Source of the DNA: Candidatus Hodarchaeum mangrovi
GTDB taxonomy: Archaea; Asgardarchaeota; Heimdallarchaeia; Hodarchaeales; Hodarchaeaceae
Direction of reading: 5' to 3'
Length of the DNA stretch: 26,179 nucleotides
NCBI GenBank assembly: GCA_016839515.1
Contig: JAEOUE010000225.1
Location: 1 to 26,179 of the forward strand
In this document: positions 10,100 to 26,179 of the stretch, one piece after another
Numbering within the stretch: the first letter of the stretch is position 1
Layout: each line of letters starts with the position of its first letter
Made by a program: the position numbers and the translations under genes
The notes under the pieces: model-generated
What the model was told of the DNA's origin: nothing
Databases searched by the model: none
What the model saw: the letters and a program-made list of their open reading frames with translations, nothing else

Positions 10100-10651
10100 T
10101 TACAGGGGTTCTGTTTGAACCTCTCGCACAAGCTGTGTGCAGATATGTGCTATCCCTTCTTTGGTCTTGGGTGTTATTGTAATATACTTTAATCCCAACT
10201 TAGAGGAAGCGATTTGACCCTCTGTATCGGTTACATCCTCAAAATCAGTTTGAAATCCAATTAAAACCATTGGAATCGATGGATTCGTTATGATGGATTT
10301 AAATTCAGCATACCAGTAGTTTACTGCTTCAAAAGAGGCTCGGTCACCCTTATCAAAGAAAATTATTCCTGCAGAGGCTCCCCGATAAAATGTCGGGCGT
10401 AATTTCTCAAAAAAATCTGCAGGGTGTATTAGAGAAAGAACTAGTTTTACCATCTGTGAATCCACCCATATGCGATGAGTCATTACATCGACTCCAGTGG
10501 TATTAATAATACCTCCAACGACACTTTTAACCCAATCTGAGGAAGTATTTCCTGTCAGTTGTCCTATTGCTGTAATAATCTGTTTTAAGGGATTTCCCAT
10601 CAAACTGATTTTAAATAGATATTCATTGCTTATCACGGGGATTCCTCCCAT
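10100..10651 (-). CDS. Rab-like small GTPase homolog with degenerate G-boxes (putative pseudoGTPase)
   Basis: Rab scaffold motifs YLFKISLMG, TTGVDV, VKLVL, LRPTFYRGA, IIFFD, SFEAVNYW and IPMVLIG are retained; GxxxxGKS/T, DxxGQ and NKxD are absent. The real start may be GTG 10636, which has GGAGG upstream. Confidence 0.85.
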   Translation of the reverse strand: MGGIPVISNEYLFKISLMGNPLKQIITAIGQLTGNTSSDWVKSVVGGIINTTGVDVMTHRIWVDSQMVKLVLSLIHPADFFEKLRPTFYRGASAGIIFFDKGDRASFEAVNYWYAEFKSIITNPSIPMVLIGFQTDFEDVTDTEGQIASSKLGLKYITITPKTKEGIAHICTQLVREVQTEPL

Positions 10652-14900: not shown

Positions 14901-15590
14901 GTGGATAAAATGTCTGATAACCATAAAAGCGTTAATTTAAAAGAAATTTCTCAAAAAGTATACCGTAATGATTATATCGATGGGTTTACATTCATTTTCC
15001 TTGGAGCTTTTCTATTGCTTGCCGCAGGGACCATCAATTTAAATCCTGTGTTTATGAGCTTATTAATTGTAGCATTTATTGCTTTCTTCCAATTAAGTAA
15101 AGTATTACGTAATCGATATACCTATCCACGAATTGGGTATTTTCAAGTAAAAACTGATGACCCAAAAAAACTCATTTCAGGAATGCTCTTATTTACTGTC
15201 ATGGTTCTTATTGTATTCTTTCTTTTGTTGTTTACATTTGTAGGTGTTGATCCTGAAGCCCTTTATGACTTTGAAAATTGGTATAGATTCTTACCAATAT
15301 ATTTGGGACTTGTAATGTTTGGGCCAAGTCTAGATATCGTAGATAAAACAGGTCAAAGAAAATATTATGGTCTTGGAATAGTTTCAACCATTTTAGGATT
15401 ACTAATAGTCTGGTTGAATTTTCAAAATGCTAAATTTGGATTTACAATCTATTTATTGTTATTAGGTAGTATTTCATGCATTATTGGGGGGATAACTTTC
15501 GTTAGATTCATAAAAAAGTATCCCATAATACCCGATTCTGAACAATCCGAGATGGAGGAAGAGAACGATGACTCCCAAGAAAAATACTAG
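14901..15590 (+). CDS. Membrane protein with RYTYPRIGY motif (type usually encoded beside HTH_34 regulators)
   Basis: YIDG...RNRYTYPRIGY...FVRFIKKYP, about 6 TM helices; start GTG 14901 or ATG 14910; overlaps the next gene. Confidence 0.8.
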   Translation: MDKMSDNHKSVNLKEISQKVYRNDYIDGFTFIFLGAFLLLAAGTINLNPVFMSLLIVAFIAFFQLSKVLRNRYTYPRIGYFQVKTDDPKKLISGMLLFTVMVLIVFFLLLFTFVGVDPEALYDFENWYRFLPIYLGLVMFGPSLDIVDKTGQRKYYGLGIVSTILGLLIVWLNFQNAKFGFTIYLLLLGSISCIIGGITFVRFIKKYPIIPDSEQSEMEEENDDSQEKY

Positions 15591-15936
15591 TTCATTTCCA
15601 ATTGATATGGAAACTATCGACAATATCGATAAAATCTTGCATGATCCATCTCGATTGAAAATTATTGCTTATTTATATTCATTAAAAGAAACTGATTTCA
15701 CTTATTTGAAGATACAAACAGGATTTAGCTGGGGTAGATTAGGTTCACACCTAGATAAACTCCAAGAAGTAGGGTATGTGGAACTAAAGAAAGAGCTCAT
15801 TCAGAAGAAAAAAAGTTCAAAGAAAACACCGAGAACCTATATTAGCTTGACAAATGAAGGAAGAAGAGCATTTGACAGGTACAGAAATTCAATGCAACAG
15901 CTCCTGCAATTAGGAAATGTAAAATCGGAGGGTTAA
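15568..15936 (+). CDS. Winged-helix transcriptional regulator (HTH_34, ArsR/MarR-like)
   Basis: IDKILHDPSRLKI...DFTYLK...G..WGRLGSHLDKLQEVGYV...PRTYISLTNEGRRAF pattern. Confidence 0.9.
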   Translation: MTPKKNTSSFPIDMETIDNIDKILHDPSRLKIIAYLYSLKETDFTYLKIQTGFSWGRLGSHLDKLQEVGYVELKKELIQKKKSSKKTPRTYISLTNEGRRAFDRYRNSMQQLLQLGNVKSEG

Positions 15937-15942
15937 ATAACA

Positions 15943-16755
15943 ATGAAGGATTTAAAGAAGGATAATAATAATATTATGTTAGAAATTACTAATTTGACAA
16001 AAAAGTATGGACAAACTATAGCAGTTGACAATCTAACTTTTACTGTTTTCACAGGTGAAATATATGGGTTACTAGGACCAAATGGAGCAGGTAAATCTAC
16101 TACTCTTAAATCAATACTTGGTCTGTTGGAACTTGACTCAGGGAAAATTTCAGTATTAGGATATAATCCAATTTCCTCTCCCACGCAAGTAAAAGAGCTT
16201 ATTGGGTATCTTCCAGAAGAATCATCATTATACGAGTCAATGACGGTAAAAGAATTATTAGATTTTATCATATCAATACGGAAACTTGATCCAGCTTCGA
16301 CACTTCAAACCTTGGATCGATTATTAGATGTATTAAACGCTAGAAAATATTATACTTCAATGATTGCTAGTCTTAGTAAAGGCAATAAAAGGAAAATAGA
16401 AATTATAACTGCTTTGATACACAGACCCCAGCTCCTAATTCTGGATGAACCTCTTTTTGGATTGGATACACGATCAGCTGTGATTCTTAAGGAAATTTTT
16501 CGTTTGCATATAGAACAAGGGGGTTCTATATTGCTTTCCACTCACATCATGGACCTTGCTCAGCAGCTATGTACCAGAATTGGCATCATTAATAACGGTA
16601 CCATAATAGTAGAGGGAACATTCGAAGAACTCCAAGAAAAATCAAATTCTACTAAATCGCTTGAACAGCTCTTTCTGGAATTAACCAACCAATCCGAAAT
16701 CACATCAAATATAATCCAGCAACTCAGAGATATACCTGCAATAAAAGCCAAATGA
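15943..16755 (+). CDS. ABC transporter ATP-binding protein (ABC-2/DrrA-type exporter)
   Basis: Walker A GPNGAGKST, signature LSKGN, Walker B LLILDEP, H-loop STH. Confidence 0.95.
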   Translation: MKDLKKDNNNIMLEITNLTKKYGQTIAVDNLTFTVFTGEIYGLLGPNGAGKSTTLKSILGLLELDSGKISVLGYNPISSPTQVKELIGYLPEESSLYESMTVKELLDFIISIRKLDPASTLQTLDRLLDVLNARKYYTSMIASLSKGNKRKIEIITALIHRPQLLILDEPLFGLDTRSAVILKEIFRLHIEQGGSILLSTHIMDLAQQLCTRIGIINNGTIIVEGTFEELQEKSNSTKSLEQLFLELTNQSEITSNIIQQLRDIPAIKAK

Positions 16756-16765
16756 GGGTTCAGTA

Positions 16766-18496
16766 ATGAGTACTTTGGTATTATGGAAAATTTCCAAATC
16801 TATTCATGAGGAAATTTATTTTAGAACTCAGCTACAGACTGGTCTCTCTTCTAAGGTAGAAACAATCGAAAAATACCAAAAAAATCTCAAATCTCAAAGG
16901 AGAATGGCATTATTAAGTAACTTGTTTTTGGTCTATGTGATTGGTGTTGTTACTCTTGTCCCCCTTTTCACCCTTCTCCATTTCTTATCAATTGAGAAGA
17001 CTGTCTTAAGTATTAACCAATTATTATTTACCAATAGCTTGATCTTGGGGATATATAATCTTTACATTTTCTTCATCCTATTTATGGGAGGACTAACAAT
17101 TTATGTGACCTTCATGAAAGGAGAATATTTCAAACTGTTATATCCACTTACGTTAAGTCCTTCTCAATTAACTCAAATTATATTATTTGTATTTATTCGA
17201 ATGAACATACTTCAAGTATTATTTATATTATTAGCACTCCCTATAAGTAGTTTAATCTTTACTCTGAATCCAATGGTTTTCGTGATTATATTTTTGAATA
17301 ATTTAATTAATGTATCTCTAATAATATTTCTTTTAATCCTTATTTCCTGGTTTCTAGCTCAGTATGTCTTTAAAGACTCTGAAAGAACTCATTGGGGGTC
17401 TTTAATCACAATATTAACAATGATAGTTTATAGCTTAACAGTAATTCCGATTTTTCTATTAATGAGTCAACTTCTCAATATTATAGTAAATATTTTCACT
17501 TTGAGTCTTGAATCTGGAATTACGACAGAAATCAACTTCCTGATGGCCTTATGTTTTTTTCCAATGTCAAGCGGTTATCTGACATCTATAATTCTATCGA
17601 ATAGTATAGATATAATTCCTTTTCCTTTAATAATCTCCTCTGTTATAGGTTCAGGAATACTGTTGGGAGTAATCATTAATGTTGTATTAAAAGGATTAGG
17701 ATTGATAAACAAAATGAATATGGAGATTATAATTCGGGATAAAAAGCAGATAGAAAAAGAAAATGCAAAAATAACAGTGAAAAGATCTAATCCGATGCTT
17801 AAAACTATTAAAATGAATTTAAAATTTGTTTTTAGAGATTATTCATCATTAACATTATTTGTTTTGGGTATTCTCTTTCCATTTCTCATTGTTATGCTTT
17901 CTATCATCTTTCCTCAAAGATATATCGATATGGGAGGAGGCCTACTTGGCTTTATAGTAACAACATTAACCTTTTCTTCAGGGATAATCGCTTTATTGTT
18001 CTTCGCTGGTACCAAAGTTTCTGAACGAAATTTGGGGTATACTTATGGAATTTTACCGTTAAAGGAACATATGTTGTTTCGATCAAAACAAATTATTGTA
18101 ACCTGTGGGTTAATTGTACCTTTATTACTAGGAATTATTATTAGTAACATTATTCGAACTCCAATCCCTTATTTAACAAGCATCCAATTACTTCTAACCT
18201 ATTTTCTTATAGGAACGGAACTGATACTTATATATACAGCATTATTTGGTTCATTTAATAATAGATTCTCATTAACTGTAGAAAATAATAATTATGCTAT
18301 TCTGAAATTAGTAATTATCTTTCTACTGCTGTTCATAACTATATTTGGTTTAGATGCTTCTATTAATCTCATTAGATCTTTATTATTACTACCTGATTTC
18401 CTAGGAATCTTGATGGTGACAGGAATATTTTATTTGGTTCTTGAATATCTATCTCGGAAGATGTTTAATGTACAAGAAAGATGTAGTGGCATCTAG
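16766..18496 (+). CDS. ABC exporter permease (large polytopic membrane subunit)
   Basis: 576-aa multi-TM protein 10 nt after the ATPase; two halves with LYPLTLS and GILPLK motifs typical of ABC-2 permeases. Confidence 0.82.
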   Translation: MSTLVLWKISKSIHEEIYFRTQLQTGLSSKVETIEKYQKNLKSQRRMALLSNLFLVYVIGVVTLVPLFTLLHFLSIEKTVLSINQLLFTNSLILGIYNLYIFFILFMGGLTIYVTFMKGEYFKLLYPLTLSPSQLTQIILFVFIRMNILQVLFILLALPISSLIFTLNPMVFVIIFLNNLINVSLIIFLLILISWFLAQYVFKDSERTHWGSLITILTMIVYSLTVIPIFLLMSQLLNIIVNIFTLSLESGITTEINFLMALCFFPMSSGYLTSIILSNSIDIIPFPLIISSVIGSGILLGVIINVVLKGLGLINKMNMEIIIRDKKQIEKENAKITVKRSNPMLKTIKMNLKFVFRDYSSLTLFVLGILFPFLIVMLSIIFPQRYIDMGGGLLGFIVTTLTFSSGIIALLFFAGTKVSERNLGYTYGILPLKEHMLFRSKQIIVTCGLIVPLLLGIIISNIIRTPIPYLTSIQLLLTYFLIGTELILIYTALFGSFNNRFSLTVENNNYAILKLVIIFLLLFITIFGLDASINLIRSLLLLPDFLGILMVTGIFYLVLEYLSRKMFNVQERCSGI

Positions 18497-18801: not shown

Positions 18802-19713
18802 TTAGCGTTTTCGCTTCCGAATGAAGAGCAGACATATAACAAAACTAAGTGTTACTACTCCGAATTCAATCTTAGTAGGATTTGATGTAGGGATTGTTGT
18901 AGGGATTGCTGTAGACGTTGTGGTCGTGGTCGTTGTGGTCGTGGTAGTCGTGGTCGTTGTGGTTGTCGTAGCTGTCGTCTCGTCGTTCACAGTAAGATTA
19001 TCAAATGAAATATCACCGATAAATGAAACAAAATGAAAATTCTCAGAAGTTTGGATCTGATTATCAGTAACTTGAAATAAGGGTTCTAAGGCATTGTCAA
19101 GATAAATACTAAATTCTCCTTGTGTAGAATTACGAGTAATAGACAGAGTATGGGAACCAATAAGTGGGGAAGAGAATTGGTAATCAGCGAGAGTGGTAAA
19201 TAAACCACTTTTCCAAATTCTTAAAGTTATTGAACGATCTTTAAGTTCCCACCAACCACTTGTATTCGATTTGATGTAAATTATATATGAGCGCATAAGG
19301 CCAGAGATTACGGAAGGGGATTGCCCTGACAAATTCCATTTACCACCACCGAAATTGTTTCCAATGAACATAACCCCACTATAAACTTCGTGATCCTGAT
19401 CTGCCGAGATTTGAAAATCGAAACTCCAGGTTCCATACGCTACTGAGCTATTATGAATAGCTATGGCTAACATAGATTCTTGGACTAAATTATTCCAAGG
19501 CATTTGTAAATGCCCATTTGTTATAATAGGGGGGTAATTATTCTGTAGATATACATCACTAGTGTCATTGTAGCCATTGAGAAACCAGTCATCAAAAGGG
19601 GGGTTCTCAAAGTCCTCATCCCACACAAATAAAGCAGAGCTTCGACTTATGGAGGAAGCAAATAGTAAACTTATCAATAAACAAATAATTGATACAAGCT
19701 TTTTAATATCCAT
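18802..19713 (-). CDS. Secreted surface protein: signal peptide, beta-sandwich (ConA/LamG-like) domain, Thr-rich stalk, C-terminal TM + basic tail
   Basis: MDIKK + hydrophobic + SSA cleavage site; WDEDFE start and FDNLTV end typical of lectin-like sandwiches; T18 linker; IEFG-TM-RKRKR; AGGAGG SD. Confidence 0.82.
   Translation of the reverse strand: MDIKKLVSIICLLISLLFASSISRSSALFVWDEDFENPPFDDWFLNGYNDTSDVYLQNNYPPIITNGHLQMPWNNLVQESMLAIAIHNSSVAYGTWSFDFQISADQDHEVYSGVMFIGNNFGGGKWNLSGQSPSVISGLMRSYIIYIKSNTSGWWELKDRSITLRIWKSGLFTTLADYQFSSPLIGSHTLSITRNSTQGEFSIYLDNALEPLFQVTDNQIQTSENFHFVSFIGDISFDNLTVNDETTATTTTTTTTTTTTTTTTTTSTAIPTTIPTSNPTKIEFGVVTLSFVICLLFIRKRKR
18916..18969 (-). repeat. Poly-threonine coding tract (18 ACN codons)
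   Basis: Mixed ACG/ACC/ACA/ACT codons with a recurring ACC-ACA-ACG-ACC-ACG unit. Confidence 0.9.
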
Positions 19714-20077
19714 AATTATTTCTCCTCCTTGAGTTTTTAGTATTGTATTAAGTCCTTTTCAATTTTAAGTAATGAAGAGATAATAACTTCAATGGTTTTA
19801 TCAGAAGTAAAACCTTAGTTTATAACATACGCTATTAAAATACAATAACATTTATAAATTTTACCATGAATAAATGCAAAATAGAATTCAATATTTTCAA
19901 TGATATTCAATAGAATTCTCCCCCAGATTCGAGTATCTAAGCAATAATTGATATGCCAAGAAGGTATCCTTAAATCACAATAATCCTAGAGGGTGATGAG
20001 TGAAGGTTTGTCTAATGATCAAAAAATTGGCTAAAAAGAACAAAAAATACCGTTCAAATAATTAAGGATGATGGACA

Positions 20078-20191
20078 TTGGAGTTCAAAATTGTTTTGAA
20101 ATTAAAGAAAATATTAAATAATTTCACCAAACCCTGGCATATTACTGGAGGTTGAGCCATTGACCTATATTTGAGAAAAGAAACACAAGAA
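20078..20191 (+). pseudogene. N-terminal remnant of an aminoglycoside-2''-adenylyltransferase-like nucleotidyltransferase
   Basis: TTG 20078: MEFKIVLKLKKILNNFTKPWHITGG*AIDLYLRKETQE. Matches the W.IAGGWAIDLFLG.ETR.H.D signature with TGG changed to TGA at 20153; similarity ends before the catalytic DxD. Confidence 0.72.
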
Positions 20192-20774
20192 TGTATTCCA
20201 TCATTACTGTTACAGTATCAGGATCCTACTAGACTGACTTTGAATAAAATGAAAAGATCAAACAAAAAATTTTGACTGAAAAGTGTTTTCGATCATGAAA
20301 TACAAAGAAAGGATATAGAGGTGAGGTAAGAACAATGATTGAGATGAAAGAGGTAAGAAATAGATCACAAACCCCATCGAAACTGAACAACAGTCAATGA
20401 TTCATATCTCGTATGATAACTCGGCCTAATCTATCATTTATTACTTATGAAATATTTAGTCACTTTTGGAGGGGTGTTCAAAATTATTGTACAGATTTTT
20501 TAAAAGTTGGTACGGGTTGTACCACTGAATATCTATTTAAGGAGGAGTAATCAGTCTATCTGAGAATTTTTTCATGTTATGTAGTGATTAAAATAAGAAT
20601 TTATGATCCTAATTTCAAAATATCAATAATTGGAATTATACTTGGATTATACTAACAATTACTACTCTATCTGTATTATATGTAAGGTATATTCAATGGT
20701 TTGAATCAATGGATACAACTCACGATGATAACTTTGGTCCTTGCAAACCTCCAGATAATTCAAATCAAATTCCA

Positions 20775-20900
20775 GATACGTCCATTAATTTCATTAAAGC
20801 TTCAACATTATTACCTGAATTAGCAGTAACTTTGATGGTAGCAGGAATATTTTATTTGATCCTAGAGGTCACATCTCGGAAGATATTCAATCTTTCTTAA
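20775..20900 (+). pseudogene. Remnant 3' end of a paralog of the ABC permease at 16766-18496
   Basis: DTSINFIKASTLLPELAVTLMVAGIFYLILEVTSRKIFN versus permease DASINLIRSLLLLPDFLGILMVTGIFYLVLEYLSRKMFN: 23 of 39 identical, ungapped (manual alignment). Confidence 0.8.
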
Positions 20901-21297
20901 TATTTTTAGCCACAGGAGGAGGGTTGAAAATTTTAGTTGCTGCAATATTAGGTTCTCTACTCGAAAAATCCAATAGAGTAAGAAATGTATTTAAATTATA
21001 AGATTACTTTAGAAATTCGTTTCAACTTTGCTTATTCATTTTAGTAATGAATCAATAATGAGTATGAGATAAAGAGAGATGAAAGGAAAAATGAGAAAGA
21101 AACTAGTATTAATAGGATTTAGAATCTTATTATATCTCCTTGGAACTCAGAGGGTTCAAGCAAAGACAATTGTAATGAGCTTCAGTTGTCATCATGAATT
21201 ATCGCATTATCCTTAATCATCGATCTCTCTTTTTAATATCTCAATCTTTCTATTGAAAATAGTAGAGACCAATACAGAAAAATATGAGAAAATCCAA

Positions 21298-23040
21298 ATG
21301 AAAAATAAGGTAGTAATCTGTATTCTTGTATTAGGAATGATAAATTGGACACCAATTTTTAATGGTAAGATTATGAGTTCGACAATACATTCTTTTAATC
21401 TTAATATGCAAGATATAAGTTTTAAAACTGCCTCGTTAAATATGCCAATCAATATTACCTCAAATGTCCACTTTGGAATGCAGGGTTATCCAGGATCAGG
21501 AACGGTCGACGATCCATATCGAATTGAAAATTTAAATTTAAAAATAACAAGTAAGGTACTGATAGCCATCTCAAATACTAGTGTTCATTTTATAATTAGT
21601 GGATGTATTTTAAATGGATCATCAACGGTCACCACAGGTATTTCTTTGACAAATGTAAAATTCGGTCAGGTGGAAAATAACACGATTAGTATGAATCAAG
21701 AGGATGGAATTACAGGGATAAATGTCTCTGAATGTTTGATCAGTAATAATAATATTAATTTTAATAGTAGATTTGGAATCTTACTAGTAGATTCGTCTGA
21801 TTGTAATGTGTATTCTAACCAGATACATAATAATCAAATGAATGGTATTCATTTTAAAAATAGTCACAAAATAATAGTTAGCGAAAACGAAATCTATAAT
21901 CACCAATATGGGGATTATTCACCTAGTGGTTTCTTTCTGGAAAACTCCTCAGAGATCCAAATTGAACAAAATTCAATTAATGACAATTATCAGGGAATTA
22001 ATTTCATTAATTCAGCAGATAATAATAATATTACCAATAATTTGATAAATAATAATATTAGGTATGGAATTAGGCTCGAATATGCCTCTAGGAATATCAT
22101 ACATAATAATACAATTAGTGAGAACCACGACTACGGAATAAAGATAACCATAGGTTCATCTAAGAATAGTGTAAGAGTAAATGATATTACAGGAAATAAC
22201 GAAGGAGGAAGGCAAGCAAGAGATGATGGAATAGATAATATGTTCGTAGGAAACTATTGGGCAGATTGGTCCAATATAGATACCAATGAAGATCTTATTG
22301 CTGATGATCCATACCCAATTGATGGTATCACAATGAATTTTGATCCATATCCACTTGTAAATTTATCAAACCAAGCACGAAAAAATCTAGAAAAAAAGCT
22401 AGAAGCACATGACAATTTTCTATTTCCAATTCTAATCTTAGTCATTCTAGGAGGAGGAATTGGAATAGGATATGTGGGCTATAACTCTCGTGTACAGAAG
22501 AAAAATCAAAGAAAGGAGACATCAGATGAGAGAGAAGAACCAATTACAGAGGACCTTACCTCAGATTTATTAAATCGGTTGAAACCTATATATCACAAGC
22601 TTATAGTAGGATTAGAATATATTCAGGCGTATTTTTTCCCTCAACCTGTCACCGTACCGTTATTAACAGTAGCAAAGCCCACCACATTACTAGAATATTT
22701 CCCCATGGATTTCAAAGAAGATTTACAGGGAGGAATGAAATGGCGCACTATCTTAACGTTAATTGAAATAGCCTATCAGGATCCAAGTGACACAAATCCT
22801 AAGAAATTAGCTACTAGCTTAGGACTCCCTCTATCAACAGTATCAGGGGAAATAAAAAAATTAAAAATGTTAAACTATATTGAGGCGTTTGTATCTGCAC
22901 AGGTAATGCGCGATGGACGGTATCGGAATTATACGATAACCCAAAAGGGATACGAACTATTGTACACCCTCAAAGAAACGTTGGGAATGGCCATAACCAG
23001 ATTAAAAGAACAAAATGAGATAAATTTTGCAGTAAAGTAA
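21298..23040 (+). CDS. Single-pass membrane protein: extracellular right-handed parallel beta-helix (NosD/pectin lyase-like) + cytoplasmic winged-helix DNA-binding domain
   Basis: Signal peptide MKNKVVICILVLG (ATG 21298 preferred over TTG 21253); repeated GIxLxxSxxxxIxxNxIxxN coils; GNYW cap; TM FLFPILILVILGGGIGIGYVGY; C-terminal ILTLIEIAY...PKKLATSLGLPLSTVSGEIKKLKMLNYIE...DGRYRNYTITQKGYELL (MarR/ArsR-type wHTH). Confidence 0.88.
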   Translation: MKNKVVICILVLGMINWTPIFNGKIMSSTIHSFNLNMQDISFKTASLNMPINITSNVHFGMQGYPGSGTVDDPYRIENLNLKITSKVLIAISNTSVHFIISGCILNGSSTVTTGISLTNVKFGQVENNTISMNQEDGITGINVSECLISNNNINFNSRFGILLVDSSDCNVYSNQIHNNQMNGIHFKNSHKIIVSENEIYNHQYGDYSPSGFFLENSSEIQIEQNSINDNYQGINFINSADNNNITNNLINNNIRYGIRLEYASRNIIHNNTISENHDYGIKITIGSSKNSVRVNDITGNNEGGRQARDDGIDNMFVGNYWADWSNIDTNEDLIADDPYPIDGITMNFDPYPLVNLSNQARKNLEKKLEAHDNFLFPILILVILGGGIGIGYVGYNSRVQKKNQRKETSDEREEPITEDLTSDLLNRLKPIYHKLIVGLEYIQAYFFPQPVTVPLLTVAKPTTLLEYFPMDFKEDLQGGMKWRTILTLIEIAYQDPSDTNPKKLATSLGLPLSTVSGEIKKLKMLNYIEAFVSAQVMRDGRYRNYTITQKGYELLYTLKETLGMAITRLKEQNEINFAVK

Positions 23041-23092
23041 AAAATATCAGAGTTTGATTCATGAAACCTTTATCTGAAGCATAAAAAAATAG

Positions 23093-23125
23093 TTGTAATT
23101 TTTTAAACTACAATCAGATTATAAA
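23093..23125 (+). promoter_or_regulatory. Inverted repeat immediately upstream of a TATA box
   Basis: TTGTAATTT-TTT-AAACTACAA (23093-23113, 8 of 9 pairs) followed by TTATAAA at 23119-23125, upstream of TTG 23178. Confidence 0.45.
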
Positions 23126-23177
23126 TATGTTTGAAATAGGGAGTTAGGAAAATAGAATAAATAATGGTAGAAATCAA

Positions 23178-25508
23178 TTGAAAAAGAAAGAAGCATGCAA
23201 AATAATCATTATAATAATCCTCAGTCTTTGTATCATCGGGATAAATGAGCAAGAAAGCTTAGATGAAAAGCACCAAGTCCCAAAAGTACAAACAAATGCA
23301 GAAGTACCAGATCTAATTAGGAGAACGATCACTGAAGTAAGTGGAATACAATCTTATATTGAACGAGGACCGATCGAAATTACCACTGATTTTCAGCTAA
23401 ATAGTTCAGGATTTCCAGGTATTGGAACAAATGATGATCCGATTCGAATTGAAGGATATAATATTACAGCCTCAAGTACTAATTTAATCATGATTAGTCA
23501 TACAACATATCATTTCATTATTATCAATTGTTTGCTCAATGGCCAAACATCAGATCTTTGGGGGATTGTTTTCGACAATGTAACTAATTCAAGGGTCGAG
23601 AATAATAGAATAATGAATACTGGGATTGATGGAATTGGTATTTACAACTCAAAACATAATACTATAATCAACAATACAATATTTAATGCTGCTGCTACAG
23701 GTGTACGACTTGAATTATATTCTAATTATAACATAATCACAAATAATACATTATTTGACAATGGAGATGGGATCAAAGTCATAAATTACTCAAACAATAA
23801 TAGTATCATTAATAATTCGATTTTTAATAGTGGTTTGGGAATATGGCTTGGTACTGATGGAAGTCCCCCACCTACTGGATCAGCTAATAATACAATTATT
23901 GAAAATACGATACATGATAATCTATATGCAGGGATTCGCCTAACAGATAACTCAGAGAGCAATAAAGTGCATAATAACACCCTATACAGAAACGACGCAT
24001 ATGGTGGAATCAGCCTAGAAAAATCCAATAATAACACAATAACCAGTAATGTGTTATTTAACAACAATGTAGGTATTAGAAATCAAAATTCCAGTCACAT
24101 TCTCATTGAAGCAAATATAGTTTATAATAATACATGGCATGGAATCTTTTGTAAAAATATTAACTATACACGTGTTTTCAAAAATATAATTTACAATAGC
24201 AATACCAGTGGAATATTTCTAAGAGATGGTCATCATGCAACAATTAAAGAAAATATTTGTTATAAAAATAGTTTGATATTTCAGCCAATTGATGCTGATT
24301 ACCAATCTGGAGGGATTACAATCATAGTAAGTCAGTCAATAATATCCAATAATAGTGTTTTTGAGAACAATGACAACGGAATAATCTTATATTGGGCAAA
24401 TAATAATAATATATCAACTAATATTATAAAAGGTAATAGAAGACATGGTATATCTGTAGGAGAATCCAATGATAACTACTTTGAAGGCAATCAGATATTA
24501 GAGAATGAAAGGACTGGCATATTATTAGGGTATCTCTCAAGCAGGTCCTTCTTTTTCCGAAATTTGATTCTGAATAATAAGGATTGGGGGATTAAAATAT
24601 TCCCAGACTCGCACAAAAATACGTTTAACCAAAATGATTTCTTGAATAATAATATGAATGGAGCACATGTCATTGATAACGGAACAGAAAATGATTTTTT
24701 AGGTAATTATTGGGGTGACTGGTATGGAGAGGTGTATTCAATAAATGGAACAGCAGAAACTCGAGATCATTTTCCACTGTTAAATCCTTTTCATATTTCT
24801 CAACCAGATATTATAGCTCCTATAAGGGAGGAGATTGAACCCGTGTTGAGTGGGAATGTTGTATTTCAGTGGAATGTTTCAAAGGATACATTTGGACATA
24901 GTCTCAAATATTCCATCTTATATACCAGTAATGAAGGTACAACCTGGACTATCCTTATATCGGGATTGACAACCACAAACTATACCCTAGATACAACAAT
25001 TATTGAAGAAAGTATAAGAATCCAGTTCAAAGTTCAGGTTTATGATACCTACGGATTCATAACTAATTCTCTTCCCACTCAAATCTTTCAAATAATGAAT
25101 GAATTAGGACCACCGAAGATTATCTTTCCAAATGGAGGTGAAAATCTGAAAGGAATGGTAAATATTGTTTGGGAAGAGTCATTCGATCCGTTTAACCATT
25201 CAGTAACCTATACTATCTATTACTCCATAAATAATGGAGCACTGTGGACTAAGCTCGCAGATGGCATAACAACAACGAATTATTTGTGGAATACTACAAA
25301 AATGCCTAATGGTTTGAGCTATCTCATTAAAATCGTAGCTACATGTACAGCTGGTATTACTACAGAAGATGTGTCAGATACAGTCTTTACCATTGAAAAT
25401 TATATTTCCACTACAACGAAGACTATCGATGATATACCTGGATTAACAGGCATGGTTCTTCTTGGTGCTCTAATGATGATTGTTAATGTCAGAAAGAAGA
25501 AATATTAG
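23178..25508 (+). CDS. Cell-surface parallel beta-helix (NosD-like) protein with two Ig/FN3-like repeats and a PG(F/L)-type C-terminal sorting/anchor tail
   Basis: Signal peptide; long GIxL/NNxI coil series; GNYW cap; two repeats P.II.P..E.L.G.V...W..S.D.F.HS..Y.I.Y...G..WT.L..G.TTTNY; STTTKT linker; IPGL-TM-RKKKY. Confidence 0.88.
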   Translation: MKKKEACKIIIIIILSLCIIGINEQESLDEKHQVPKVQTNAEVPDLIRRTITEVSGIQSYIERGPIEITTDFQLNSSGFPGIGTNDDPIRIEGYNITASSTNLIMISHTTYHFIIINCLLNGQTSDLWGIVFDNVTNSRVENNRIMNTGIDGIGIYNSKHNTIINNTIFNAAATGVRLELYSNYNIITNNTLFDNGDGIKVINYSNNNSIINNSIFNSGLGIWLGTDGSPPPTGSANNTIIENTIHDNLYAGIRLTDNSESNKVHNNTLYRNDAYGGISLEKSNNNTITSNVLFNNNVGIRNQNSSHILIEANIVYNNTWHGIFCKNINYTRVFKNIIYNSNTSGIFLRDGHHATIKENICYKNSLIFQPIDADYQSGGITIIVSQSIISNNSVFENNDNGIILYWANNNNISTNIIKGNRRHGISVGESNDNYFEGNQILENERTGILLGYLSSRSFFFRNLILNNKDWGIKIFPDSHKNTFNQNDFLNNNMNGAHVIDNGTENDFLGNYWGDWYGEVYSINGTAETRDHFPLLNPFHISQPDIIAPIREEIEPVLSGNVVFQWNVSKDTFGHSLKYSILYTSNEGTTWTILISGLTTTNYTLDTTIIEESIRIQFKVQVYDTYGFITNSLPTQIFQIMNELGPPKIIFPNGGENLKGMVNIVWEESFDPFNHSVTYTIYYSINNGALWTKLADGITTTNYLWNTTKMPNGLSYLIKIVATCTAGITTEDVSDTVFTIENYISTTTKTIDDIPGLTGMVLLGALMMIVNVRKKKY

Positions 25509-25770
25509 CTCATCCTGTAAAGAAGATATTTTATAGATAAATGTTCCACATAGGAGAATGATGATGAGGTCATGGGAATCTACTCTTAAAGCATCTACCA
25601 AAGGTGCAGCAATGATAGCAGTCACATTGCTAATTTTTCAAACCATTTTAACATGGAAAATAGGAAATATCGACTTCACAATCGTAAGAACAATTCTACA
25701 CTATTTTTTGGTTACTCTATTTAGTATGAATTTAATTATTACACTTTTTCATCTTCGTTTTATAAATAAG

Positions 25771-26179
25771 ATGGAGAGAAACCGAAATTCATCATTTGGG
25801 GGATTAATTGGCCTATTCGGCTTATTTATCGCAATTATACCTGGAATCCTTGATCTTCTACCTGAATTGAATATTCATCTAATTTATATGATCTCTGATT
25901 ATCTTTTTGGATGTGGAATAGTTCTTTGTGTATTCGGATTTTTAATAGAGTTGACACGTATCGATGAACCACTTATTTATTGGTTTAAGTTTCACTTTGT
26001 GTTAATAACACGTATGATAATATTTGTGTTAAGTCTTATTCCAGTATTTCTTACTATTTCGTTAAATTTATCGACAAATTCTATCTTCCTAGCGATTATA
26101 CTCTTTTTAGGAGGGTATATAACTGGTTCAGCAGTTTGGATTGGACATCGCTATTTTAAAGGTATAACTTCAACAGAAA
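25771..26179 (+). CDS. Hypothetical membrane protein, 5' part (runs off window)
   Basis: ATG 25771 opens a stop-free frame to the window end: MERNRNSSFGGLIGLFGLFIAIIPGILDLL...; several hydrophobic helices. Not in the ORF track. Confidence 0.7.
   Translation, partial: MERNRNSSFGGLIGLFGLFIAIIPGILDLLPELNIHLIYMISDYLFGCGIVLCVFGFLIELTRIDEPLIYWFKFHFVLITRMIIFVLSLIPVFLTISLNLSTNSIFLAIILFLGGYITGSAVWIGHRYFKGITSTE

Follow-up and report, generated by a model that had tools for sequence, protein, structure and literature searches.

A candidate single-pass receptor with a MarR-like cytoplasmic tail encoded beside a paralogous surface-protein gene in the Asgard archaeon Candidatus Hodarchaeum mangrovi

The 26,179-nucleotide (nt) stretch of Candidatus Hodarchaeum mangrovi DNA analysed here (contig JAEOUE010000225.1 of assembly GCA_016839515.1; hereafter the window) carries two genes on the same strand that together occupy positions 21298 to 25508 (Table 1). 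Gene 1 encodes a membrane protein in which a leader, a beta-helix ectodomain and one transmembrane (TM) helix are followed by a C-terminal tail resembling the winged helix-turn-helix (wHTH) domain of MarR-family regulators, and gene 2 encodes a large anchored surface protein whose beta-helix is paralogous to that ectodomain. An earlier note, made from the sequence alone, had described the pair as a candidate receptor-transcription factor with a matching surface protein; its gene coordinates were correct, and all of the peptide strings that it quoted are found in the two translations. The ATG assigned to gene 1 yields an N-terminus resembling those of the orthologues. A chimeric assembly at the fusion, which the note had named as a ground for refutation, is ruled out: an independent 1749-nt contig from a run of another study equals positions 21521-23269 with 0 differences and bridges the ectodomain, TM helix, tail, spacer and start of gene 2, and the architecture recurs in about 100 sequence clusters. 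Rfam and tRNA scans of the window returned no match.

Table 1. Features of the two-gene locus, with positions counted from the first nucleotide of the window.
Feature	Position	Strand	Details	Basis
Gene 1	21298..23040	+	ATG 21298, stop at 23040; 580-aa single-pass membrane protein	Open reading frame (ORF) and translation
Gene 1 leader	21298..21369	+	Residues 1-24; basic and hydrophobic, signal-peptide-like	Hydropathy segment, residues 3-23
Gene 1 parallel beta-helix ectodomain	21445..22362	+	About residues 50-355	Pfam, TIGR03804, alignment to gene 2
Gene 1 TM helix	22417..22482	+	Residues 374-395, then a basic stretch	Hydropathy and flanking charge
Charged low-confidence linker	22483..22551	+	Tail residues 2-24	Model confidence (pLDDT) 51-58 over the first 20 tail residues
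MarR-like domain	22552..23037	+	Tail residues 25-186; long N-terminal helix, wHTH core, long C-terminal helix	AlphaFold2, Foldseek, VIA
Helix-turn-helix	22798..22869	+	Tail helices 107-114 and 118-130, the latter predicted to serve in recognition	Model secondary structure
Wing motif	22912..22950	+	D145-x-R147 ... T154-x-K156-G157 (tail numbering)	Conservation and AdcR/ZitR alignment
Spacer between gene 1 and gene 2	23041..23177		137 nt	
Candidate operator GTTTGATTCATGAAAC	23052..23067		GTTTC-N6-GAAAC with one mismatch; gene 2 starts 110 nt further on	
Second, weaker candidate site	23130..23143		Two mismatches to TTYC-N6-GRAA	MAFFT, six beta-helix-type spacers
Gene 2	23178..25508	+	TTG start 23178; surface protein of 776 aa with leader, beta-helix, two repeats and an anchor at the C-terminus	
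Gene 2 beta-helix, paralogous to gene 1 ectodomain	23370..24785	+	About residues 65-536	Pfam and BLASTP
Two stalk repeats of about 100 aa	24783..25433	+	Residues 536-645 and 646-752	Self-BLASTP, 37% identity, E 2e-16
C-terminal PGL motif, TM helix, RKKKY	25434..25505	+	PGF-CTERM-like anchor or sorting tail	Hydropathy and sequence

The ectodomain of gene 1 scores above the Pfam cut-offs for NosD (90.8 bits) and Beta_helix (90.2 bits) and matches the TIGR03804 repeat at 74.9 bits. Both proteins miss the cut-off of 300 for TIGR04247, the NosD model of nitrous oxide reductase maturation (67.7 bits for gene 1, 78.3 for gene 2), and what they share with NosD is, judged by sequence, only the generic beta-helix repeat. 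Leader, TM helix and topology were called from Kyte-Doolittle hydropathy and flanking charge, and together with the Pfam matches and an AlphaFold2 model they bear out the order that had been read from the letters, namely signal peptide, beta-helix, one TM helix and C-terminal wHTH. The two domains are predicted to lie on opposite sides of the membrane, as the earlier interpretation demanded: the TM helix stands between them, and among the 113 proteins that share the tail (see below) lysine plus arginine is more frequent after the TM segment in 85, with a mean of 2.9 in 15 residues after it and 1.3 before it. No match to HisKA, HATPase or REC was found in gene 1 with Pfam at E ≤ 0.1. Gene 1 shows the layout of the SusR/BguR type, with a signal peptide, an outside sensor, a single TM helix and a C-terminal helix-turn-helix (HTH) in one chain free of phosphorelay domains, and it has two hallmarks of a transmembrane transcription regulator (TTR), at least one predicted TM segment and, in the same protein, a domain predicted to bind DNA, the latter being the MarR-like wHTH recognised by AlphaFold2, Foldseek and VIA (an all-against-representatives alignment).

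The 186-residue tail was modelled by AlphaFold2 with an alignment of 103 family sequences, giving a predicted local distance difference test (pLDDT) score of 88.3 and a predicted template modelling score of 0.80. About 24 disordered residues precede a long helix and a linker; the wHTH comes next, with three helices and a beta wing, and another long helix forms the C-terminus. The model contains the elements of the MarR fold, a helix, a wHTH with beta wing and C-terminal helices. The AlphaFold and Foldseek check that the earlier note had proposed for this domain returned a wHTH whose top 30 matches in the PDB are nearly all MarR-family proteins (TM-score 0.47-0.66 on the target), with MepR, MarR, MexR, SlyA and FabT, several of them solved on DNA, among the best. 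The intact HTH that the note had recognised corresponds to two helices of the model, and its MarR-like wing to a stretch in which D145, R147 and G157 are invariant and T154 and K156 at least 90% conserved across the 103 sequences, and which a profile search of PDB sequences aligned with the D-E-R ... T-E-K wing of AdcR and ZitR, zinc regulators that belong to the MarR family, with a weak E of 0.03. A wing motif of the Asp-x-Arg plus Thr-x-x-Gly type is a signature of the MarR family, and the tail possesses it. The recognition helix is nearly invariant across loci. The sub-threshold Pfam matches of the tail are all to wHTH DNA-binding families (MarR, MarR_2, HTH_45, HTH_24, HTH_11, HTH_34 and IclR), and a few relatives exceed the cut-offs of such models (P0058, HTH_34, 30.1 against 27; P0104, HTH_27, 26.6 against 22.2). 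MarR_2 is matched at E ≤ 0.01 in 19 of the 50 rows of alignment A3 (44 of which are tail-family rows), with none displayed above cut-off, and the leads for a homologue's tail in the Protein Atlas, all below 0.9, are without exception wHTH regulators. GerE (PF00196) and Y_Y_Y gave no match in gene 1 at E ≤ 0.1, nor in the tail at E ≤ 10.

Fold alone is no proof of DNA binding, since non-DNA-binding winged helices come nearly as close to the tail by VIA (ScpB, Z 10.3; ESCRT-II, 9.2; RPA32C, 9.3) as do the MarR proteins (up to Z 10.6, in a field of 9-10.7); gene 1 itself, moreover, stays below the Pfam cut-offs for MarR (16.9 bits against 24.6) and MarR_2 (16.7 against 27). These scores would suit a tail serving as a winged-helix protein-interaction module, which would link surface proteins with a partner in the cytoplasm, in the service of anchoring, sorting or signalling, and leave the palindrome described below to another factor, as would the repeat that many members share with ordinary surface proteins, the family resembling surface proteins with an added tail. 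However, the alignments of ScpB, ESCRT-II and RPA32C are restricted to a core of 60-80 residues, whereas MarR proteins align over 110-131 residues between about residue 15 and residue 186, both flanking helices included. The invariant D-x-R wing and the near-invariant recognition helix are as expected for contact with DNA, ectodomains of the periplasmic-binding-protein (PBP) type in some relatives suggest a sensor-output design, and a palindrome with a half-site spacing of 10 bp co-occurs with the family. We thus consider an interaction module unlikely and regard the tail as a probable DNA-binding domain.

Gene 2 has an N-terminal hydrophobic leader, scores above the Pfam cut-offs for NosD (146.9 bits) and Beta_helix (136.5 bits), and closes with a TM helix and RKKKY. 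The paralogy of the two ectodomains, which the earlier note had seen in short matching strings, is confirmed by BLASTP (35% identity over 243 residues, E 3e-23), with a second segment (E 4e-20) that includes the C-terminal NYW..DW cap. The end of the protein had been described as Ig-like repeats and a sorting tail. Two repeats are indeed there, as their mutual similarity attests; their Ig-like fold, by contrast, stays a putative one, the matches among PDB sequences being non-significant FN3/Ig-type ones (E 0.33-3.1). Likewise, a Thr-rich linker, PGL motif, TM helix and basic end are present as expected for a sorting tail, but no NCBIfam model matches this region at E ≤ 1. The orthologous surface proteins end in similar [PS][GS][FMLIW] tails, and the genome encodes an exosortase/archaeosortase-family protein (PF09721, 33.4 bits against 25.7; contig C169). 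With stalk repeat 2 (25113-25433), BLASTP matched 72 database rows at E ≤ 1e-3, two of them gene 2 itself and others the surface proteins of five loci. Its homologues include the membrane-proximal domain of many tail-family proteins, a repeat of about 100 residues that stands just before the TM helix; gene 1 lacks it. That this repeat is common to gene 2 and to most tail-family receptors suggests that the receptors arose from anchored surface proteins.

A search for the same cytoplasmic wHTH behind variable ectodomains, which the earlier note had called for, shows that the type-I layout (outside domain, one TM helix, cytoplasmic MarR-like wHTH) is real and recurrent. Exhaustive phmmer searching with the tail yielded 113 clusters (50% identity) at E ≤ 1e-3 and 98 at E ≤ 1e-10, the match always lying at the extreme C-terminus of proteins of 186-1109 amino acids (aa), and 101 of the 103 family proteins of at least 300 aa have a hydrophobic segment, taken as the TM helix, 120-230 aa before the C-terminus. 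The ectodomains are mostly beta-helices, accompanied by ANF_receptor/Peripla_BP_6 domains in three representatives, WD40 in five, Bmp/PnrA in one and NHL/SBBP in one; some consist of a small repeat domain, about 25 representatives have no Pfam domain outside the tail, and in a further subtype, of about 260 aa, two TM helices stand at the N-terminus and an ectodomain is all but absent. In a tree of the tails, some short rows of which may be fragments, the ectodomain types interleave, and the beta-helix label changes at least eight times on well-supported branches alone. For instance, an NHL form falls inside the supported clade of 13 to which gene 1 belongs, and the Bmp form inside a supported beta-helix clade. 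To exchange input domains while the output stays constant is typical of proteins in signal transduction. Of 301 genomes sampled from across the phylum, 18 have the tail family (16 of the 20 that belong to the window's own taxonomic family, one of 11 in another and none of 270 in the others), with one to six copies per genome, and the named records are metagenome-assembled genomes labelled Heimdall-, Hod- or Hermodarchaeota. The genome of the window (G000) holds one tail paralogue, on contig C29.

The neighbourhood of the tail genes was examined with our own ORF caller in 28 loci, namely the window, the C29 paralogue and 26 of 27 public loci, with L028 treated separately. Twenty-seven were counted (the contig of L023 ends within the tail gene, and this locus was omitted), and 23 of these have a same-strand gene within 400 nt downstream. 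In 20 of the 23 this gene encodes a surface-type protein, defined by a leader and a C-terminal TM helix with basic tail, or cut by a contig end or split but otherwise consistent: a beta-helix in six, an SBBP propeller in eight and an LVIVD propeller in six. The adjacency to paralogous surface genes that the earlier note had wished to see checked is thus conserved: at each of the six beta-helix-type loci for which DNA downstream is available, a paralogue of the ectodomain is encoded next on the same strand (E 1e-23 to 1e-37), and at two of the six a pair of paralogous surface genes stands in tandem. Paralogy between ectodomain and neighbour holds for the beta-helix subtype only and was rejected as a general rule; no BLASTP similarity at E ≤ 1e-3 links the Ig-like and hairpin regulator forms to their SBBP and LVIVD neighbours. 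Two relatives of 647 and 1144 aa, considered as PBP/WD40-type forms beside transporters, turned out to be beta-helix forms that lack a surface-gene neighbour. At three further loci the contig ends downstream of the tail gene. The SBBP surface gene that follows the C29 paralogue (locus L002, 13566-15155) is split into frames of 97 and 420 aa, a split for which a frameshift, a sequencing error or pseudogene status could account. At L012 (8799-11604) two genes come after the regulator, the first for an LVIVD propeller and the second for a secreted Peptidase_C25 protein (gingipain-type) with the same kind of anchor.

Signal transfer through such a protein may take more than one form. The start of the tail, a disordered, charged linker after the TM helix, makes rigid transmembrane signalling unlikely and favours control by oligomerisation, clustering or release. 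Release would make gene 1 a membrane-tethered factor in which an ectodomain signal leads to cleavage in or near the TM helix and frees a soluble MarR-like tail, after the logic of Notch, SREBP and RsiW. The linker of about 24 residues would be accessible to a protease, the TM helix is glycine-rich in gene 1 and near relatives, and a length below 200 aa together with the lack of a TM helix is seen in 32 of 148 family proteins, so that a soluble tail could exist, though many of these may be gene fragments. Yet just 23 of the 113 family members have a GxxxG or glycine-rich TM segment, the cassettes have no conserved protease neighbour (the one at L012 stands alone), and an apparent soluble copy at L028 was rejected, its short frame being an effect of masked bases. 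The adjoining positions of regulator and target genes suit action from the membrane, and the characterised TTRs tabulated in PMC10269533 are described there as acting from the cytoplasmic membrane. Release by proteolysis is therefore, in our judgement, rather improbable, and we favour a receptor that acts while still anchored.

A link between regulator and downstream gene is further suggested by a recurrent palindrome in the spacer, roughly (A)GTTTC-N6-GAAAC(T), which in the hairpin subtype reads CTTCC-ATTTTT-GGAAG. The exact form TTYC-N6-GRAA occurs in 15 of 23 cassette spacers and in 8 of 140 other spacers of 60-400 nt from the same loci (Fisher p 2.6e-10, a value that overstates the case, since the loci are related and form roughly 8-10 independent groups), which corresponds to 4.3 and 0.27 per kb, respectively. 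Most of the remaining cassette spacers hold versions with one mismatch, the further hairpin cassette L028 has an exact site, and the palindrome recurs between subtypes whose spacers are otherwise unalignable. Its distance to the downstream start is conserved within subtypes (114-132, 93, 62-75 and 39 nt), whereas that to the upstream stop varies, and the site is therefore tied to the downstream gene. The near-invariant recognition helix fits a shared half-site. Within the window, the candidate operator GTTTGATTCATGAAAC is self-complementary at 6 of 8 position pairs, and the weaker site is the positional equivalent of those in L007 and L008, directly after the TATA-like TATAAATA at 23120-23127, a putative promoter element. 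On C29, the stop codon in the paralogous cassette is immediately followed by a perfect site. Autoregulation through the same palindrome is unsupported, with an exact site in one of 27 regions upstream of tail genes and none in that of the window, and an RNA hairpin or terminator at this place was rejected (minimum free energy -4.8 kcal/mol, z 0.07, no structure beyond chance). A one-mismatch palindrome also stands at position 10259 of contig C115 of the same genome, 93 nt before a 401-aa surface gene running from leader to C-terminal TM helix, with no adjoining tail gene and with a spacing equal to that of the SBBP cassettes; this gene may be an extra member of the regulon. In the orthologous loci L031 (4109) and L032 (11943), a site of the TTCC-N6-GAAA type lies upstream of the regulator, between MFS transporter and TPR genes.

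The tail could also bind DNA at targets other than gene 2, the adjacency stemming from duplication of a surface gene with later gain of the tail, and the palindrome being a promoter feature of surface genes or the site of another regulator. The paralogy of genes 1 and 2 would agree with this, as would the orphan surface gene on C115, the A/T-rich, TATA-like centres of many sites and the distant family members that have no surface-gene neighbour. The site is, however, also found in cassettes in which no similarity between regulator and target is detectable (Ig-like or hairpin forms with SBBP or LVIVD propellers), it is rare in other spacers, as the counts given above attest, and only 22 intergenic near-matches exist in the 4.0-Mb genome, two of them being those of the two cassettes. 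Such a scheme seems to us very unlikely, and we retain gene 2 as the probable target of gene 1.

ToxR and CadC, to which the earlier note had opposed gene 1, have an N-terminal cytoplasmic OmpR-type wHTH and a C-terminal periplasmic sensor (type II). Gene 1 does not fit this layout, its sensor being N-terminal behind a leader and its wHTH C-terminal and MarR-like. ArnR of Sulfolobus acidocaldarius has an N-terminal HTH, C-terminal TM helices and no large ectodomain, and it comes from Thermoproteota, a different lineage than that of gene 1. As the only characterised archaeal TTR in Table 1 of PMC10269533, ArnR nevertheless shares with the proposed role of gene 1 that it is an archaeal membrane-bound one-component regulator of a surface structure, acting on motility and pilin expression. 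TTRs as a class (ToxR, TcpP, CadC and others), which combine a TM segment and a DNA-binding domain in one protein as gene 1 does, are reported to be widespread, occurring in most bacterial and archaeal genomes, with 1,384 of them in 367 archaeal species (Demey et al. 2023, PMC10269533); according to Table 1 of that paper, many control surface structures (pili, fimbriae) with the partner gene adjoining, as proposed here. Its main text contains neither 'Asgard' nor 'MarR', and its supplements may list such proteins.

The same layout is found in BguR and SusR of Bacteroidota, which are reported to consist of a signal peptide, a large outside sensor, one TM helix, a linker and a C-terminal HTH, with no phosphorelay (10.64898/2026.01.10.698779). 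That report describes a conserved motif in the spacer before the first controlled gene and a sensor related to the controlled glycan system, and gene 1 shares with them the order of domains and the presence of a conserved motif in the spacer before the proposed target. They differ in that BguR is bacterial, with a tandem beta-propeller and Y_Y_Y sensor and an HTH of the GerE/LuxR type, whereas gene 1 has a beta-helix (in the family, also other domains), a MarR-like HTH and an archaeal host, and in that the predicted target of gene 1 is a single surface-protein gene instead of a polysaccharide utilisation locus. In VtrA/VtrC and ToxR/ToxS, co-component systems in which the gene of a membrane regulator is paired with an adjacent gene for an extracytoplasmic partner, the partner is described as a small periplasmic co-sensor (10.1101/2022.04.08.487670); gene 2, in contrast, encodes a large anchored surface protein paralogous to the regulator ectodomain and is more likely a target than a co-sensor. 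Soluble MarR regulators (MepR, MarR, MexR, SlyA, AdcR/ZitR and FabT) share with the tail the N-terminal helix, wHTH, wing and C-terminal helix, and the candidate operator, a palindrome whose half-sites stand 10 bp apart, would be of the palindromic kind that their family binds. Unlike them, the tail is tethered to the membrane behind a large ectodomain, scores below cut-off for Pfam MarR and MarR_2, and gives no sign of a small-molecule pocket. A full-text literature search found no description of the tail family in Asgard archaea, nor does the accessible part of the ESCRT paper PMC11188069 treat it. The novelty claimed in the earlier note is narrower than it had seemed: the class is known from ToxR and CadC and the layout from SusR and BguR, and what would be new is a MarR-like, archaeal form with varied ectodomains.

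Taking together the computed architecture, fold, conserved wing motif, modular family, conserved gene order and enriched palindrome, we propose, with a probability of roughly 0.6, that gene 1 is a transmembrane one-component regulator of type-I topology that acts on gene 2. The beta-helix would lie outside, one TM helix would cross the membrane and the MarR-like winged-helix domain would reside in the cytoplasm. The outer domain would sense a ligand handled by the paralogous surface protein, probably a polysaccharide, or that protein itself, and sensing would alter the oligomeric state of the receptor. A dimer of the tails might then bind the GTTTC-N6-GAAAC-type palindrome of the spacer from the membrane, with no need of release, and thereby control the transcription of gene 2, be it positively or negatively. 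The earlier interpretation is largely sound and partly supported, a co-receptor role of gene 2 being conjectural; DNA binding, dimerisation, the nature of the ligand, the sign of regulation and action without release we infer. The direct control of a matching surface gene that the note proposed draws on comparative evidence, namely conserved adjacency and a palindrome enriched in the spacer.

Several observations weigh against this proposal, besides the near-equal Z values of non-DNA-binding folds, the low Pfam scores, the disorder predicted for the first 24 tail residues and the relatedness of the loci. Three loci, L013, L025 and L027, have no surface gene downstream: at L013 a monooxygenase gene takes this place, with an LVIVD gene divergent upstream, and at L025 and L027 a gene for a small multi-TM protein. 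L014 has no same-strand downstream gene at all, and the more distant members L031/L032 and L033, of the beta-helix type, lack a site in the spacer and lie beside the gene of a multi-TM protein or housekeeping genes. Lysine/arginine variation in the recognition helix does not track cleanly with TTTC and TTCC half-sites, and this correspondence was abandoned. Among the sequencing runs listed as containing this stretch, none is of RNA. The window's own site has one mismatch, and the second, weaker candidate lies nearer to gene 2; near-matches are not rare in the window (4 against 0.93 expected, three of them inside genes), so that GTTTGATTCATGAAAC alone is weak evidence.

To our knowledge, hardly any work has been done on signal transduction in Asgard archaea, which most placements make the archaeal group closest to eukaryotes. 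The tail family, lineage-restricted and with one to a few genes per genome, couples many outside domains directly to a predicted DNA-binding output, usually beside a surface-protein gene. If the tail binds the palindrome, regulator, operator and target would form a simple set testable in vitro with no need to culture the organism, would show how these archaea tune the envelope that mediates contacts with partner cells, and would provide an archaeal example of the type-I one-component receptor layout hitherto described for SusR and BguR of Bacteroidota only. Should proteolysis instead set the tail free, its likeness to the membrane-tethered factors of eukaryotes would be interesting from an evolutionary point of view. 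A bolder conjecture, to which we attach little credence, is that this Asgard lineage (Hodarchaeales-type) built plug-and-play single-pass receptor-transcription factors from its own surface proteins, which gained a MarR-like tail behind their TM anchor. As the outer domain of the receptor is paralogous to the protein whose gene it would control, sensing might be homotypic, the presence or ligand of that protein feeding back on the envelope, with the signal passed by clustering or by proteolytic release of the tail; such receptors would be a prokaryotic counterpart of eukaryotic membrane-tethered transcription factors.

Other features of the window lie outside this system. Upstream, positions 18802-19713 (-) encode a 303-aa anchored surface protein with a leader, a run of about 20 threonines, a C-terminal TM helix with RKRKR and no Pfam family. 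Between it and gene 1, about 1.58 kb (19714-21297) are devoid of ORFs of at least 80 aa; the first 471 nt match contig C228 of this assembly at 90% identity, and 118 nt (20774-20891) are 75% identical to the 3' end (18352-18469) of a gene for a 576-aa membrane protein, so that the segment may be a decayed duplication. That gene, whose product is a multi-TM protein, closes a row on the plus strand (15568-18496) that begins with a small winged-helix regulator (HTH_34, 68.5 bits) and continues with an ABC ATPase; the row looks like an ordinary operon of soluble regulator and transporter. A Ras-family small GTPase, of a kind common in Asgard genomes, is encoded at 10100-10651 (-; 62.1 bits). Downstream, after a gap of 52 nt from gene 2, a gene at 25558-26178 (+) that is open at the end of the window encodes a multi-TM protein with no Pfam or NCBIfam family.

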